A stretch of 18,023 nt of DNA from Candidatus Bipolaricaulia bacterium (GTDB lineage: Bacteria > Bipolaricaulota > Bipolaricaulia > JBHIAT01): positions 1-18,023 of the forward strand of contig JBHIAT010000065.1 in the NCBI GenBank assembly GCA_046758705.1, read 5' to 3'. Position numbers and translations under genes: made by a program. Shown here piece by piece: positions 1 to 13,826 of the stretch. Positions within the stretch are counted from its first letter, which is position 1, and each line of letters begins with the position of its first letter. Under the pieces are notes generated by a model. It ran no database searches. It was not told where the DNA came from and saw only the letters and a list, made by a program, of their open reading frames with translations.

Positions 1-187
1 CTTCAAGCGCACAATTGTAGAGGTTGCGGCACAGGTCAAGGGTACGTTCCAATCTGGCTATAGTACCTTTAGAAGTGGGGTAGGCGCGATATTTGTAGGT
101 TTTACGGATGGTAGTCGATGGGGTAGAATGGTTATTATCGGTCAATACACCGGACTTCAGTCCGCGTGGACTTTCTCCTCTTTCCAT
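1..187 (-). CDS. tnpB: TnpB-like (IS200/IS605 OrfB) RNA-guided nuclease, N-terminal part only; runs off the window; original start displaced by an insertion
   Basis: Manual minus-strand translation: (MERGESPRGLKSGVLTD)NNHSTPSTTIRKTYKYRAYPTSKGTIARLERTLDLCRNLYNCALE. RKTYKYRxYP...LERTLDLCRxLYNxALE is the typical OrfB N-terminal HTH segment. In-frame ATG at 187 and TTG at 145 lie within the inserted element. The RBS-associated ATG at 463 is in the same frame but blocked by TAG at 343-341. RuvC domain not visible. Confidence 0.88.
   Translation of the reverse strand, partial: MERGESPRGLKSGVLTDNNHSTPSTTIRKTYKYRAYPTSKGTIARLERTLDLCRNLYNCALE
101..129 (+). promoter_or_regulatory. Putative antisense promoter within tnpB coding sequence
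   Basis: TTTACG (101-106), 17 bp spacer, TAGAAT (124-129). The -10 box is the complement of the His-Ser-Thr codons (CATTCTA). Confidence 0.5.
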
Positions 188-456
188 GGTATAATGATCA
201 CAGATCTTTGACAACGTATGGGGTTGTTGCCGCAACCCTGAGCAACGTAAAACGTTGTGGGTATAGCCAGGTGCATTTTGCCAGCGTTTTGCTGTTCAGC
301 GAAACAGAAGCTAACAGCCGCGAAGCCTGGCCTAAAGAAACTAAAACGTTGTGTGTGAACTGGCCGGGCGCGGCCAGCGTGGAGGCGTGAACCGCTGCGA
401 GAGCAAGTTCCGCCTGTGAAACGAGAAGCCCCGTACTTTAGTGCGGGGAGCGTCAC
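136..456 (+). mobile_element. Non-autonomous IS200/IS605-family mini-element inserted in the tnpB start
   Basis: Left-end-like hairpin CACCGGA-CTTCAG-TCCGCGTG (148-168). Right end GAAG-CCCCGTACTTTAGTGCGGGG-AGCG-TCAC (425-456). TTAT immediately left (132-135, alternatively 135-138). No credible ORF and no target duplication. Removal rejoins the tnpB frame. Left boundary uncertain by 3-6 nt. Confidence 0.75.
167..195 (+). promoter_or_regulatory. Sigma70-type promoter inside the mini-element, facing the omega-RNA-like region
   Basis: TGGACT (167-172), 17 bp spacer, TATAAT (190-195) with extended -10 TG at 187-188. Confidence 0.7.
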
Positions 457-476
457 TAGCCATGTCGTCACTCCGT
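202..476 (+). ncRNA. Putative TnpB omega-RNA (reRNA) scaffold plus ~20 nt guide from the right flank
   Basis: Downstream of the promoter. Several stems (GGGTTG/CAACCC, CAACGT/ACGTTG, CCAGG/CCTGG, GGCC/GGCC, AGGCG/CGCCT). Ends in the right-end hairpin and TCAC at 453-456, the usual scaffold/guide boundary. Guide would start at 457 (TAGCCATGTCGTCACTCCGT). Confidence 0.62.
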
Positions 477-491
477 TTGACGGCTTGGTTA

Positions 492-533
492 GAGGCCGTG
501 AGCAGATCCAGTCTGCTTACGGCTTCGTTTTTT
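492..533 (+). terminator. Intrinsic terminator for the antisense/omega-RNA transcript
   Basis: 15 bp stem GAGGCCGTGAGCAGA / TCTGCTTACGGCTTC (two G-U pairs), 5 nt loop, then G and T6 (528-533). Confidence 0.8.
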
Positions 534-562
534 ATTCTACTGAATCGCTATCAGAAAGTCAA
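534..562 (-). promoter_or_regulatory. Sigma70-type promoter of tnpB
   Basis: Minus strand TTGACT (562-557), 17 bp spacer, TAGAAT (539-534); leads to GGAG-N7-ATG at 463. Confidence 0.72.
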
Positions 563-605
563 GTCAAGGGCAAGAGGCAAAGGCTTTGCCCTTGGGCTTT
601 CTGGG

Positions 606-647
606 CCCCATAGCTGAAGCAAGGGGTCTTAGAAAGCCAATATCATG
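606..647 (-). mobile_element. Probable left end of the outer tnpB-carrying IS200/IS605 element
   Basis: Minus-strand hairpin CCCCTTGCTTCAGCTATGGGG (626-606) resembles IS608-type subterminal palindromes as I recall them. Candidate TTAT target motif at 651-648. No tnpA between this end and tnpB. Exact boundary uncertain. Confidence 0.6.
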
Positions 648-681
648 ATAAAAAGGCTCAAAAAACAGGGAAGATTTTAAG

Positions 682-2118
682 ATGTCCGTTCAATTAAAGT
701 ATGAGGGCGGTACGATTGCTATTACCGCCCCCCAACATGCTGAATCACTGCCGCTAGCGGTCTCTCTGCAATCCTGGGTGAAATGGGATGCCCGGTCTCA
801 GACGTATCGTGCCCTGGCCTTTCGTTACTATGAGCTTCTCCAGATCCTAAAGAGTGAGAGGATCCCCTTCGAGGATCGGGTTCTCAACCTGCTTCCCTCC
901 CCCTCCCTCGATCCCGATACATTCGCTTCGGATTCAGATTCCCCCCCGGTGATCGAACTGCGAGATTACCAACAAGAGGCGCTGGAGCGCTGGCTCACAG
1001 ACGGGCAGGGTCGAGGAACCGTGGAACTGCCCACCGGCGCGGGCAAGACGATCATCGCCCTGGGAGCCATTGCCCGGCTTAAGTGTGCCACGTTCATCGT
1101 GGTCCCCACGTTAGATTTGGTCGAACAGTGGAAGCGGGTTCTCTCACAATCGGGGTTTGAGCCTATTGGCGAGCTGACCGGGCAAGAAAAGCAACTCGAG
1201 GCGATCACGGTGGCCACCTACGATTCGGCCTACATCCACGCGGATAAGTTCGGCAACCGGTTTCCGCTCATCGTCTTCGACGAAGTCCATCACCTCCCCT
1301 CGCCCGGATATCGTCATATCGCAGAGTTCTTCGCTTCCCCCTATCGACTGGGTTTGACAGCCACCTATGAGCGTGAGGATGACCTGCATGAAGTGCTCTC
1401 GGAGCTCCTAGGGGGAGTGATCTTCGAGGTCCACGTCGAAGAACTGGCGGGGACCCACCTCTCCCGTTATGCCCTGGAGCGAATCTACGTCGATCTTACG
1501 CCGGAGGAACGGGAGGATTATGACAAAGCCCAGGACGTCTTTCAGGGCTACTTAAAGAAGCGCCGCATCAGAATTAGACACCCCCGCGATTTCGAAAAAC
1601 TGGTCTACCGCAGCGGTGGCGATTCCGAGGCCTGGAGAGCCATACGAGCACGCCACCAGGCTGTCCAGATCGCCTTCAACGCGAAGCACAAACTGGATGC
1701 GTTGCGAACCCTTCTGGACACGCACCGGGGGGACCGCATCATCATCTTCACACGCTTCAACGATCTGGTCTATCGCATTTCCCAGGAGTTCTTCATCCCC
1801 TGCATCACGTATAAGACGGGGCGGGAAGAGCGCCGTGAAGTGCTGGAGGGCTTTCGGGATGGAGTGTATCCGGCGATCGCCAGCTCCCAGGTCCTCGATG
1901 AGGGAGTGGATGTGCCTGAGGCTAATGTGGGGATTCTGCTGAGTGGCACCGGCAGCTCTCGGGAGTTCATCCAGCGGTTAGGCCGGCTGCTTCGGCCCCG
2001 GGAAGGAAAACAAGCCATTCTCTATGAGATTGTATCACGCGGGACTGGCGAAGAACAGACGGCCTCCCGCCGCAAGCGGAAACTAAGATCGAAGTCAAAG
2101 TCGAAAAAGGAGTCCTGA
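682..2118 (+). CDS. XPB/Rad25-like superfamily 2 DExH helicase
   Basis: LRDYQ, Walker A LPTGAGKT, DEVHH, LGLTAT, VLDEGVDVP and QRLGRLLRP motifs; N-terminal WDARSQTYRA segment; adjacent to a DUF790 gene. Confidence 0.92.
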   Translation: MSVQLKYEGGTIAITAPQHAESLPLAVSLQSWVKWDARSQTYRALAFRYYELLQILKSERIPFEDRVLNLLPSPSLDPDTFASDSDSPPVIELRDYQQEALERWLTDGQGRGTVELPTGAGKTIIALGAIARLKCATFIVVPTLDLVEQWKRVLSQSGFEPIGELTGQEKQLEAITVATYDSAYIHADKFGNRFPLIVFDEVHHLPSPGYRHIAEFFASPYRLGLTATYEREDDLHEVLSELLGGVIFEVHVEELAGTHLSRYALERIYVDLTPEEREDYDKAQDVFQGYLKKRRIRIRHPRDFEKLVYRSGGDSEAWRAIRARHQAVQIAFNAKHKLDALRTLLDTHRGDRIIIFTRFNDLVYRISQEFFIPCITYKTGREERREVLEGFRDGVYPAIASSQVLDEGVDVPEANVGILLSGTGSSREFIQRLGRLLRPREGKQAILYEIVSRGTGEEQTASRRKRKLRSKSKSKKES

Positions 2119-2125
2119 CCCCCGC

Positions 2126-3754
2126 ATGCTGACCAAGGACCTGCTGGTGGCCCGCCGATATCGAGACAAGATCCACCCGCGCTACGTGGATCCTCACTCG
2201 CCTGAGCAAATGAAACGGGCTGAACGAGTACTCGAGGTCTACCACGAGCACATCGGGGCACCCCGTGAGCGACTGACTCAGCAATTAGAGGACTTAGAAA
2301 CTCACCAGAACTTCAAACTGGCGCGTGGCCTGGCGCAACTGCTGGAGCGCCGTTGCCTCTTCGAGCCCGTTTACGCTGTAGAACCCCGACACTTAAGGCG
2401 ATTCCTCTGCCAGAAGGGCTATGTCACCGGTCCTCAAGAACGGACCACCCGGTTAAAGGAAGCCGCCCGGGCGTTGGAGAGCTCACCCGAAGATCTCGAC
2501 GATTCGTTCTGGGCTGACCGCGAGGAGAAGCAGATACTCCAAGGCTTTCTACCCGCCGGCCCTCTGCCTTTGAGGAAAAGAGAAAGAGGGAGAGGGCCGA
2601 CCGAGACCGAGCTGACGCCCGTAGATCAGCTGAACTTATCCCCTGAGGGTCTCCTGCGACAGTACAATCTCTCCCTGACACAGACGCTCTTGTTCGGCGC
2701 GCTGGATTTGTGGTTCCAGGCCTCAGGCAACTACCAGCAAATCTTCCGGTGGATCAAATACCTGGGCCTGATGTACGAGGCGGTTGAGGAACTGCCCGGT
2801 CAGGTCAAGGTGAGGGTGGATGGACCGGCTTCGATCTTCAAGGAGACAACCAAGTACGGCACCTCCCTGGCCAAGCTGCTCCCGGTCCTCACCCGGGCCG
2901 AAACCTGGCAACTCGTCGTCCACATCAAAGAGAAGGGGACGCGTTACACCTTCAAGTTAGATCACTCCAAGCGCGCCCTGTTCCCACAGCAACTGGACGA
3001 GGTCGGCGAAAAATTTGACAGCGCCGTAGAGCAAAACTTCTATCAGCGCATCCGTGCGGTGATGCGCGAATGGGAGGTAAAGAGAGAGCCGACGATTTTG
3101 AGGGCGGGGCCGCACATCTTCATTCCCGACTTCGGTTTCGAACACCGTGGGCTTCGGTACTATTTAGAGATCGTCGGTTTCTGGACGCCGGAGTACCTGG
3201 AGAAGAAGTTGAACAAGCTGAAGGCAGCTGATGCCGACCTTCTCGTTGCCGTCGACGTCAACCTCAACTGCACCGAAGACGATTGGGAAGAGACTGGCAA
3301 GGAAGTCTTCACCTATGACAAAAAGCTTCCGCTGGAGCCCGTGATCCAAAAACTGCAAGAGCTTGCCAAAGGACAAAAACAAAGGGAACTGAAACAGCTT
3401 CGACAACAAAAGTTCATACCGAAACTGGAAGACGATCTCATTGAGTTAGCGAAGCTGGCCCAGCAGTACGATGTTGGAGTGGAGACCATGAAGGAAGTGC
3501 TCGAGAAATGCCTGGAGAGCGGCCGTATTGAAGGGTATCACCTGATACAGGACACGGTGGTCTCTGATCGCCTGCTTAAGGAACTCGAAGATGAGCTGGA
3601 CGCCCTGCCAGCGGGGAAGGATGGAGGAAGGGATCTCAAGGCGGTACAGGACGTCTTAGAGCGCTATGGTTTGGGCCAGCAGGCATTGGAGCTTGTGGGG
3701 TACAAAGTGGAGTGGGAGAGCTTACTGGAGACGCGCGTTATCCGCATAAGATGA
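2126..3754 (+). CDS. DUF790 family / Bax1-like PD-(D/E)XK endonuclease
   Basis: MLTKDLL start, YNLSLTQTLL, DGPASIF..TTKYG, FDSAVE and REP...FIPDF...YLEIVGFWTPEYLEKKL signatures; 7 bp after the helicase stop. Confidence 0.9.
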   Translation: MLTKDLLVARRYRDKIHPRYVDPHSPEQMKRAERVLEVYHEHIGAPRERLTQQLEDLETHQNFKLARGLAQLLERRCLFEPVYAVEPRHLRRFLCQKGYVTGPQERTTRLKEAARALESSPEDLDDSFWADREEKQILQGFLPAGPLPLRKRERGRGPTETELTPVDQLNLSPEGLLRQYNLSLTQTLLFGALDLWFQASGNYQQIFRWIKYLGLMYEAVEELPGQVKVRVDGPASIFKETTKYGTSLAKLLPVLTRAETWQLVVHIKEKGTRYTFKLDHSKRALFPQQLDEVGEKFDSAVEQNFYQRIRAVMREWEVKREPTILRAGPHIFIPDFGFEHRGLRYYLEIVGFWTPEYLEKKLNKLKAADADLLVAVDVNLNCTEDDWEETGKEVFTYDKKLPLEPVIQKLQELAKGQKQRELKQLRQQKFIPKLEDDLIELAKLAQQYDVGVETMKEVLEKCLESGRIEGYHLIQDTVVSDRLLKELEDELDALPAGKDGGRDLKAVQDVLERYGLGQQALELVGYKVEWESLLETRVIRIR

Positions 3755-12773: not shown

Positions 12774-13826
12774 TCACCTATCCTGCAGGGTCCTCCTCAA
12801 TGATTCGACCAACCTCCGATTCAGCTCCTTCGTCCCAATGGTGATGCGCACACAACCTTCGAGCCCCGGTTGATCACTCACGTCTTTGATCAGGATCCCG
12901 CCGCGCTTCAGCGCACTCACCAGCTCTCTGACATCGATCGGACTGCGGGCCAGCAGAAAGTTCGCCTGTGACGGGTAGACCCGAAAGCCCAGGTTCTCCA
13001 GGTCCCGGCGAAGTCTTTCTCGTTCGGTTCGGACCAGCTGAATATAGCCTTCGACAAACGTCTGTTCGTTGAGCGCTTCGATCGCGATGCGCTCGCTGAT
13101 GGAGTTCATGTTGTAGTCGGGTCGCGCCCGGTCGAGAGCCCGCACCATCGCCTCACCCGCGACCAAGTAACCCACCCGGATCCCGGCCAACCCGTAGGCT
13201 TTCGAGAACGTCCGGTTGACGATCAAATTCTCATAATCTCCGATCCGTTTGACAAAGTTCTGGTCGCTGAACTCGGCGTAAGCCTCATCGATCAGGACGA
13301 CCGGGGTGTTCTCGATCACCTGGATGATCGCTTCCTCAGATAAGCAGTTGCCGGTGGGGTTGTTGGGCGAACACAGGATGGCAAGCTTCGCCCCCGCCCC
13401 GAGCATCCCGTCGACGTCGAGTGCAAACCCGTTGAGCAGAGGAACCTCGACGACCTCGGCCGCGTTCACCCGGGCGAAGAACGGGTACATGATGAAGCCG
13501 GGGACCGGGTAGGCAACCCGCTCCCCGGGGTTCACAAACGCTCTCACCACGATGTCCAGATTCTCATCGGCACCGCGACCGACCAGCACCTGTTCAATCG
13601 AAAGACCGTGGAACCGAGCCAACGCCTCGCGCAGCGGCCGAGCGTCGGGGTGAGCATAGTGGTTCAACTCCAACGAAGCTAGATCGACTCGGGTGACCGC
13701 CGGGTTCGGCCCGATCAGGTTCGTGTTCAGGTCCATCGGGATTCCCGGTTCGTACCGATATTCAGGCAACTCCAACTCCCGGACCGATTTTCTCATCAAC
13801 TGTTCCAACTTCTGCCTCAGCGCCAT
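12774..13826 (-). CDS. hisC: Histidinol-phosphate aminotransferase
   Basis: SPNNPTG, DEAYAEF, RTFSKAYGLAGIRVG (PLP lysine), PSQANF and VRITIGT. Confidence 0.95.
   Translation of the reverse strand: MALRQKLEQLMRKSVRELELPEYRYEPGIPMDLNTNLIGPNPAVTRVDLASLELNHYAHPDARPLREALARFHGLSIEQVLVGRGADENLDIVVRAFVNPGERVAYPVPGFIMYPFFARVNAAEVVEVPLLNGFALDVDGMLGAGAKLAILCSPNNPTGNCLSEEAIIQVIENTPVVLIDEAYAEFSDQNFVKRIGDYENLIVNRTFSKAYGLAGIRVGYLVAGEAMVRALDRARPDYNMNSISERIAIEALNEQTFVEGYIQLVRTERERLRRDLENLGFRVYPSQANFLLARSPIDVRELVSALKRGGILIKDVSDQPGLEGCVRITIGTKELNRRLVESLRRTLQDR

Follow-up and report, generated by a model that had tools for sequence, protein, structure and literature searches.

The window analysed here is an 18,023-nt stretch of DNA from a Candidatus Bipolaricaulia bacterium (positions 1 to 18,023 of contig JBHIAT010000065.1, assembly GCA_046758705.1), which begins at a contig end with part of a tnpB gene on the minus strand. 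This gene is interrupted by PATE1 (136-456, plus strand), a 321-bp mini-element of the IS200/IS605 type without a protein gene, whose right end encodes a predicted omega-RNA. Guide-only elements of this kind, published as PATEs or standalone omega-RNAs acting in trans, are described in the cited parts of two earlier studies (Meers et al. 2023, PMC10055086; Altae-Tran et al. 2023, PMC10691335). PATE1 splits tnpB at 457/456, in the opposite orientation, after codon 2 plus one base. The 5' piece of the gene, ATG GCT A (463-457, minus strand; codons 1 and 2 and the first base of codon 3), was assigned from its sequence and from a paralogue on contig C185 that starts MAKNHST. The part of the 3' piece that lies in the window (135-1, minus strand) reads AT AAC CAT TCT ACC, with the rest of codon 3 followed by NHSTPSTTIRKTYKYRAYP... 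The tnpB gene of the window therefore has no uninterrupted frame, since its 5' piece enters a 40-aa open reading frame (ORF) that ends at 341.

The genome assembly contained six full copies of PATE1 with 100% identity, located on six contigs with unrelated flanks, and contig ends carried further fragments, four from the right end and five from the left. The tetranucleotide TTAT stood directly 5' of the element in 11 of the 11 readable left junctions; in the window this target, a putative transposon-adjacent motif (TAM), occupies 132-135 on the plus strand and abuts the left end of PATE1. Copies of a related element, PATE2, were likewise preceded by TTAT. Because nine of ten right flanks of PATE1 start with T, the preferred target may be TTAT^T instead of TTAT alone. 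In contigs assembled from three public runs, the unitig depth inside PATE1 was approximately 135-162, compared with 11-14 for the flanks, a ratio that suggests, very roughly, a copy number of about a dozen. PATE1 was found in 0 of 40 other genomes of the same class that were searched. Judged from these data and from the sequence features described below, PATE1 is a recently active, multicopy PATE of the IS200/IS605 type that lacks a gene and carries a predicted promoter-driven omega-RNA precursor.

The boundaries of the insertion were defined by comparison with the C185 paralogue, which reads ...GAATGGTTTTTAGCCATGTCGTCAC where the window has ...GAATGGTTAT|TAGCCATGTCGTCAC. The two are of equal length, without a target duplication, and because the paralogue is uninterrupted at this point the boundary 136-456 is exact to the base. 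The same comparison indicates that exact removal of 136-456 restores the tnpB frame (MANNHST...), again with no target duplication. As the original prediction had proposed, the restored frame would lie behind a ribosome-binding site, the Shine-Dalgarno sequence GGAG (474-471, minus strand), and a promoter-like site, TTGACT-17-TAGAAT (562-534, minus strand; 10/12 in the scan). Its description of the insert as an IS200/IS605-type element that lacks a protein gene, ends on the right in an omega-RNA-like sequence and is placed precisely after TTAT in codon 3 of tnpB was likewise borne out by the identical copies, the C185 comparison and the absence of Pfam matches. The alternative boundary that it had offered, 139-456, found no support: the corresponding 138|457 junction had zero matches in the genome, and C185 fits 136-456.

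A 24-nt empty junction (135|457) built by script had a single match in the genome, namely C185 with one mismatch. The search for copies and junctions that had been suggested thus yielded identical copies with different flanks and no empty site. No empty-site allele of this locus was present in the assembly, and the left flank of the window had no other copy in the genome except the 80%-identical paralogue and an overlap with the start of contig C274. No 135-to-457 joint was seen in contigs of four public runs, and since contigs drop rare variants this result is uninformative on rare excision. Among the public runs listed, none was recorded as RNA. In the public-run contigs, the unique flanks extend 25 nt (left) and 28 nt (right) into PATE1, whereas 31 letters are needed to call a bridge; the junctions in the window therefore rest on the assembly and the comparison with the paralogue.

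One of the at least 11 PATE1 sites falls in a tnpB gene, and the other sites, numbering at least 10, are in unrelated places. The copy at C63:2111-2431 splits a 247-aa frame that is rich in hydrophobic segments and resembles a membrane protein, which shows that insertions of PATE1 inactivate ordinary host genes too. Another copy sits eight codons upstream of a stop, and the remaining three full copies, being crossed by frames of at most 91 aa or by none, were read as intergenic.

Subterminal hairpins were found at both ends of PATE1, which has no terminal inverted repeats. The left-end hairpin, CGGAC TTCA GTCCG (151-164, plus strand; centroid of the single-stranded DNA fold), and the right-end hairpin (429-448, plus strand; single-stranded DNA fold) are similar in shape and different in sequence. 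The left-end hairpin (CCGGACTTCAGTCCG) matches the right-end hairpin (…CCCCGGACTTCAGTCCGGGGTAGTTGAC) of a different high-copy IS605 family (CCCCGGACTTCAGTCCGGGG...TAGTTGAC), which breaks the assembly at the ends of contigs C151, C123, C101, C241, C44, C41 and C153, and PATE1 may be a chimera of the ends of two families. A promoter-like site with a TG extension, TGGACT-17-TATAAT (167-195, plus strand; 10/12 in the scan), reads toward the right end. The two longest ORFs of PATE1 (104 and 74 aa) had no Pfam match. A small protein gene inside the element was rejected on this ground and on the ground that the stems show compensatory changes. Beyond the right end, a terminator-like hairpin with a T-run (492-535, plus strand) lies approximately 36-79 nt downstream; it is the complement of the hairpin in the 5' untranslated region (UTR) of tnpB (526-492, minus strand) and may end read-through from the PATE.

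The tnpB elements on C274 and C185 have 3' ends that aligned with the last ~100 nt of PATE1, with compensatory changes (79-83% identity over 54-81 nt by BLAST); one hairpin, for example, reads CTGGCCGGGCGCGGCCAG in one and CCAGTGGGGCACCACGGG in another. The right end keeps the C-terminal codons of tnpB, E-x-R-S-P-V-L-stop, and its sequence GGGGAGCGTCAC resembles the right end of the interrupted insertion sequence (IS), GGGGAGTGTCAC. In every copy the homologous scaffold runs as far as the element boundary (456), beyond which the flanks differ. From this 3'-end alignment and from a predicted long-range pairing of 346-350 with 449-453, we placed the predicted omega-RNA scaffold at approximately 345-456 (plus strand; ~112 nt, including the right-end hairpin 429-448) and the predicted guide at 457-472 or 457-476 (plus strand; 16-20 nt of the right flank). 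The predicted helix 7, formed by the long-range pairing, was kept in 96.7% of alignment cells, and in helices 7-13 this share was 78.6-100%, 11 pairs having changed on both sides, in a set of six related sequences from which the structure itself had been predicted. Over the whole RNA, 93.3% of cells were paired, compared with 88.2% in shuffles, and 16 pairs were changed on both sides, compared with 5.2 +/- 1.7 in shuffles (0 of 500 shuffles reached this value), figures to be read with the small number and the relatedness of the six sequences, and their use in the prediction, in mind.

The predicted guide is antisense to tnpB codons 1 and 2, the first base of codon 3 and the ribosome-binding site. 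Its predicted target is the empty junction, TTAT + TAGCCATGTCGTCACTCC (TTAT+TAGCCATG), which is the start codon and ribosome-binding site of tnpB itself; this part of the original prediction could be read directly from the sequence. The sole other near-match to the guide in the genome was in C185, where it follows TTTT and has a mismatch at guide position 16.

Between the promoter-like site and the scaffold lies a predicted structured 5' RNA domain of ~140 nt (module X; ~205-344, plus strand), consisting of a P1-closed junction with hairpins P2, P3 and P4-P6, and 5 of the 16 pairs changed on both sides lie in it. The domain is common to four PATE families in this genome, PATE1, PATE2 (C120, C45 and C106), PATE3 (C244) and PATE4 (C159), with a remnant on C144. 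The four families differ in their left ends, and the omega-RNA core of PATE4 is also different, being of the type found on C14 and C33. A nhmmer search with the domain detected 12 loci in the genome, none of them beside a tnpB, and no counterpart was found in the tnpB-bearing elements of this genome. Over 75 nt, the left end of PATE4 shares 83% identity with that of the split IS (window 578-652), and in PATE4 a CTTGACTT -35 box lies at the same place with respect to the left-end hairpin. The PATE promoter thus derives from the old promoter of tnpB. By its position, the predicted 5' domain is in the place of the former tnpB ORF. Contigs of two public runs join 203 to 578 on opposite strands, the only joint listed; this fits the C159 element, in which a left end like window 578-652 is followed by the 5' domain, and not a local rearrangement.

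In an exact-word scan of 185,579 species genomes, the most conserved 20-mer of the 5' domain was found in one stretch, within the unrelated metagenome-assembled genome G041 (locus L034). A 26-mer gave no stretch in an exact-word scan of the genome contig collection, and two exact-word patterns gave none in the metagenome contig collection. At least seven places in G041 (L035-L041) contain the 5' half of the domain (P1-P3), and in the five places with a readable flank the surrounding sequence is a small PATE-like element that has its own left-end hairpin and promoter, a P4 hairpin unlike that of PATE1 and a right end of the GGGGAGTGTC type. The domain was missing at the four tnpB loci of G041 that were examined. 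Within the phylum, one of 184 genomes contained the motif, and it is the genome of the window. No description of such a 5' domain was found in the literature listings and passages of papers examined. As far as these sequence comparisons go, the 5' domain is the least expected feature of PATE1 and the part most worth following up, being confined, in the loci found, to ORF-less elements of four families in this genome and one in G041. Should this domain control how trans-acting omega-RNAs are expressed, processed or stabilised, that would account for PATEs remaining functional without a tnpB mRNA, and it could then be of practical help in expressing TnpB guides.

The remainder of the interrupted tnpB was recovered from C274, the start of which overlaps the first 55 bases of the window; this overlap is unique. 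The gene continues at C274:56-1098 (366 codons, with a stop at C274:1098), and the host IS ends with GGGGAGTGTCAC at C274:1117. The piece in the window matched HTH_OrfB_IS605 (PF12323), and the C274 piece matched OrfB_IS605 (PF01385) and the TNB zinc ribbon (PF07282), with a score of 334.2 bits to the NCBIfam model guided_TnpB and E=6e-63 to the ISDra2 TnpB structures 8bf8, 8exa and 8h1j. An extension to the left had been proposed as a check for the RuvC D-E-D residues, and they are present in the C274 continuation, where GIDVG, AFEQL and HRDHN align with the catalytic residues of ISDra2. The equivalents of E278 and D361 were counted on the ISDra2 chain numbering, and the first catalytic Asp is the one that we take to be D191. 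Apart from the PATE1 insert tnpB looks intact in sequence, which fits a recent insertion.

The left end of the host IS (464-647, minus strand) was assigned by alignment with the left ends on C185 and C159 and includes a hairpin region (628-597, minus strand). It follows a TTAT (651-648, minus strand), so that the junction reads ...TTTTTAT|CATGATATTGGC; the C185 left end is preceded by TTTAT, and the C159 left end opens with the same CATGACGTTGGC after a different flank. Because the host IS starts at 647 after TTAT and the C185 element after TTTAT, the family of the disrupted TnpB appears to share the adjacent motif of PATE1.

The TnpB encoded on C185 is full length (395 aa; guided_TnpB, 342.6 bits), begins MAKNHSTTPNIIRKTYRYRAYP (MAKNHST...), is 76% identical to the C274 piece and has the same motifs as the split TnpB. 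Our search of the genome detected six matches to Y1 TnpA (Y1_Tnp) and 23 to TnpB; candidate Y1 TnpAs lie on C27, C207 and C257. With both kinds of gene present, PATE1 may plausibly be mobilised in trans by a TnpA, and its RNA used by a TnpB of this clade, for which the intact C185 TnpB would be the best candidate nuclease. At C33:13029-13251, a further tnpB from the same clade is interrupted by an unrelated mini-element of ~236 bp (a miniature inverted-repeat transposable element, MITE) with short inverted termini (TTTTGCACC...GGTGCAAAA), which has 97-98% identical copies on C97 and C190 and weaker ones on C6 and C162. The nesting of small elements in tnpB is therefore a recurrent event in this genome.

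In the passages of the two PATE studies cited here (PMC10055086, PMC10691335), the elements resemble PATE1 in being short and ORF-less, in having hairpin ends of the IS200/IS605 type, in occurring in multiple copies after a fixed tetranucleotide, and in having a right end that encodes a predicted omega-RNA in need of a TnpB encoded elsewhere. Unlike the PATEs described in those passages, the PATE1 family has a promoter derived from tnpB and the additional ~140-nt structured 5' domain. The omega-RNA of ISDra2, as given in the part of its structural description used here, has a 116-nt scaffold with a pseudoknot between -105..-103 and -5..-3, and can do without its 5' region (-231 to -117) (Nakagawa et al. 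2023, PMC10097598). The predicted scaffold of PATE1 is similar in length to this published one (~112 versus 116 nt), and the last bases of its right end are predicted to pair in a like manner with a segment ~105-110 nt upstream. The two differ in the adjacent motif, which is TTAT here and TTGAT in ISDra2, and in the 5' region, which is non-coding and conserved in PATE1 and part of the tnpB ORF in ISDra2.

In the TnpA/TnpB model, as set out in the part of the work cited here, the guide corresponds to the right flank of the element and the target is the scarless donor joint (PMC10055086). The predicted target of the PATE1 guide agrees with this homing model, since it is the donor joint formed by TTAT and the right flank. 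PATE1 differs from the usual case in that this joint is the start of another tnpB and the nuclease would come from a paralogue, making it a special case of the same mechanism. Since the guide is the right flank of every such element under the published model, the match between guide and start codon is not evidence of design. Our case also resembles the general nesting of insertions in ISs during IS decay, in which insertions into IS genes are tolerated and accumulate, the C33 tnpB being a second example; it differs in that PATE1 belongs to the same superfamily as the element that it disrupts and depends on the type of protein that it destroys.

Taken together, these results make it most likely that PATE1 lies in tnpB as a chance, recent and selectively neutral nested insertion, which among the three options of the original prediction is the one that fits best. 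A Y1 TnpA acting in trans would have inserted PATE1 3' of a TTAT that chance had placed in codons 3-4 of a tnpB carried by a related IS, and the insertion, in the opposite orientation, would have broken the gene after 'MA'. The guide of this copy would be antisense to the start codon and ribosome-binding site of tnpB because any element of this type takes its right flank as guide. The C185 TnpB would be the candidate nuclease that cuts the empty junction under this guide, and a copy retaining the PATE would then serve as the template for repair of the break. The transcription of PATE1, its binding by TnpB, the use of TTAT as a TAM, cleavage and homing are steps that we infer. Of 12,134 TTAT sites, 64 lie in tnpB regions, so that among 11-13 insertions one or more hits would be expected with a probability of 5.7-6.6%; this naive estimate takes no account of the fact that insertions survive better in dispensable genes. 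The placement of PATE1 in a tnpB is thus only mildly unexpected.

Several observations weigh against this explanation. The naive probability is only 5.7-6.6%, and the hit falls exactly at the start of the gene, which leaves room for some bias of PATE1 toward related elements. No tnpB right end in the assembly is nearer to that of PATE1 than 79-83%, and for this reason we can only infer a cognate TnpB. The left hairpin of PATE1 is unlike its own right hairpin and closer to the right end of another family, so that the TnpA that mobilises it is ambiguous. C185 reads TTTT where the tnpB of the window has TTAT, which could be read as an escape from insertion or cleavage; at ~80% nucleotide identity, chance alone would more likely than not produce a difference of this kind.

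The bias just mentioned would gain in meaning if PATE1 preferred the tnpB of a sister element and were held there by the TnpB of a paralogue, acting as a hyperparasite that disables rival nucleases; the preference could arise from the local action of TnpA at IS ends or from exposed single-stranded DNA. The interrupted IS is indeed related and follows the same TTAT, the insertion lies ~185 nt from its TnpA-binding left end, an intact paralogous TnpB is available in trans, and the naive chance of the hit is ~6%. We nevertheless regard such a preference as improbable, because only 1 of at least 11 PATE1 sites is in a tnpB, the equivalent site of the paralogue lacks TTAT and is empty, and the other split tnpB, on C33, was hit by an unrelated type of element, as expected if insertions in IS genes are merely tolerated. 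The original prediction had similarly raised the idea of a parasite that uses TnpB to convert intact tnpB copies. That idea amounts to generic homing at this particular site, and the only other near-target, C185, has TTTT and a mismatch at guide position 16. A broader version, in which PATE1 is a hyperparasite of its own family that disables one tnpB, stays locked in through the TnpB of the intact paralogue, and carries its 5' domain, seen in ORF-less elements only, as a dedicated RNA module for making or stabilising omega-RNA without a tnpB mRNA, seems to us a speculative picture and on the whole unlikely.

An excision-activated, self-limiting switch, which had also been suggested, would require that PATE1 be kept in codon 3, that excision by TnpA restore tnpB, and that the restored gene be cut again, producing a pulse of TnpB. 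The precise in-frame restoration, the intact promoter, ribosome-binding site and remaining ORF, and the identity of the guide with the start-codon region would all suit such a device. However, the arrangement occurs once, without a second nested copy; the closest paralogue, C185, is uninterrupted; the assembly contains no empty-site form; the same element is found at at least 10 unrelated sites; and copies that are 100% identical speak for a recent spread, not for an arrangement that is maintained. The guide gene would also leave with the excised element, and re-cutting would need a second, unexcised copy in the genome, as for any IS605 element. We therefore give the switch almost no credence. 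A living tnpB with a new N-terminus, in which the left end of the PATE supplies an in-frame extension (ATG 187: MERGESPRGLKSGVLTD + NNHSTPST...), is scarcely more credible. On the minus strand, a frame without stops runs from 235 across the left junction into tnpB (ORF 2..235), but no Shine-Dalgarno-like sequence precedes ATG 187, the only nearby minus-strand promoter-like site (214-186; 9/12) overlaps this ATG, and read-through from the native promoter first meets the 40-aa ORF that stops at 341. An open frame of ~50 nt is expected by chance in about one-third of frames and, lacking a ribosome-binding site and a usable promoter, the ATG 187 frame is probably a meaningless chance opening. A related possibility, that 136-456 is a fixed leader of tnpB with a natural start at 187 or 145, was rejected: the C185 gene starts MAKNHST directly after its ribosome-binding site, and independent copies of PATE1 exist. 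The direct start of C185 and the restored frame together dispose of this objection, which the original prediction had itself named.

If the chance nested insertion is the correct explanation, a guide-only element lodged in the nuclease gene of its sister would be a clean natural example of the modularity of TnpA, TnpB and omega-RNA. By the known logic of homing, the paralogous nuclease would maintain PATE1 in the sister tnpB, and the case would illustrate conflict among elements of one family with no new mechanism needed.

Some further candidates and minor elements were noted. The whole window had no Rfam match at the gathering score; three weak matches obtained over 100-560 at E<=10 (E 1.2-6.4, far below the gathering score) were dismissed as chance, and a group I intron or IStron remnant was rejected because Rfam gave no match. 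A blastn search of 196-456 against plasmids returned no match, and against phages it returned a single 35-nt match to a Thermus phage (E 2e-3), which was judged trivial. Three deletion derivatives, smaller still, were seen in the genome. At C80:9200-9349, half of a left-end hairpin is fused straight to an omega-RNA scaffold, forming a mini-PATE of ~150 nt without promoter or 5' domain; at C297:~1290-1398, a left end is fused to a scaffold of the C14/C33 type; and at C46:~13425-13535, the first tnpB codons are fused to a right end. Just beyond the left end of the host IS, the window carries on its plus strand (682-3754) a gene for an XPB-type helicase (ResIII, XPB_DRD and ERCC3_RAD25_C) followed by a DUF790 gene, presumably the pair known as XPB-Bax1, and the host IS lies 31 nt upstream of the helicase start codon.

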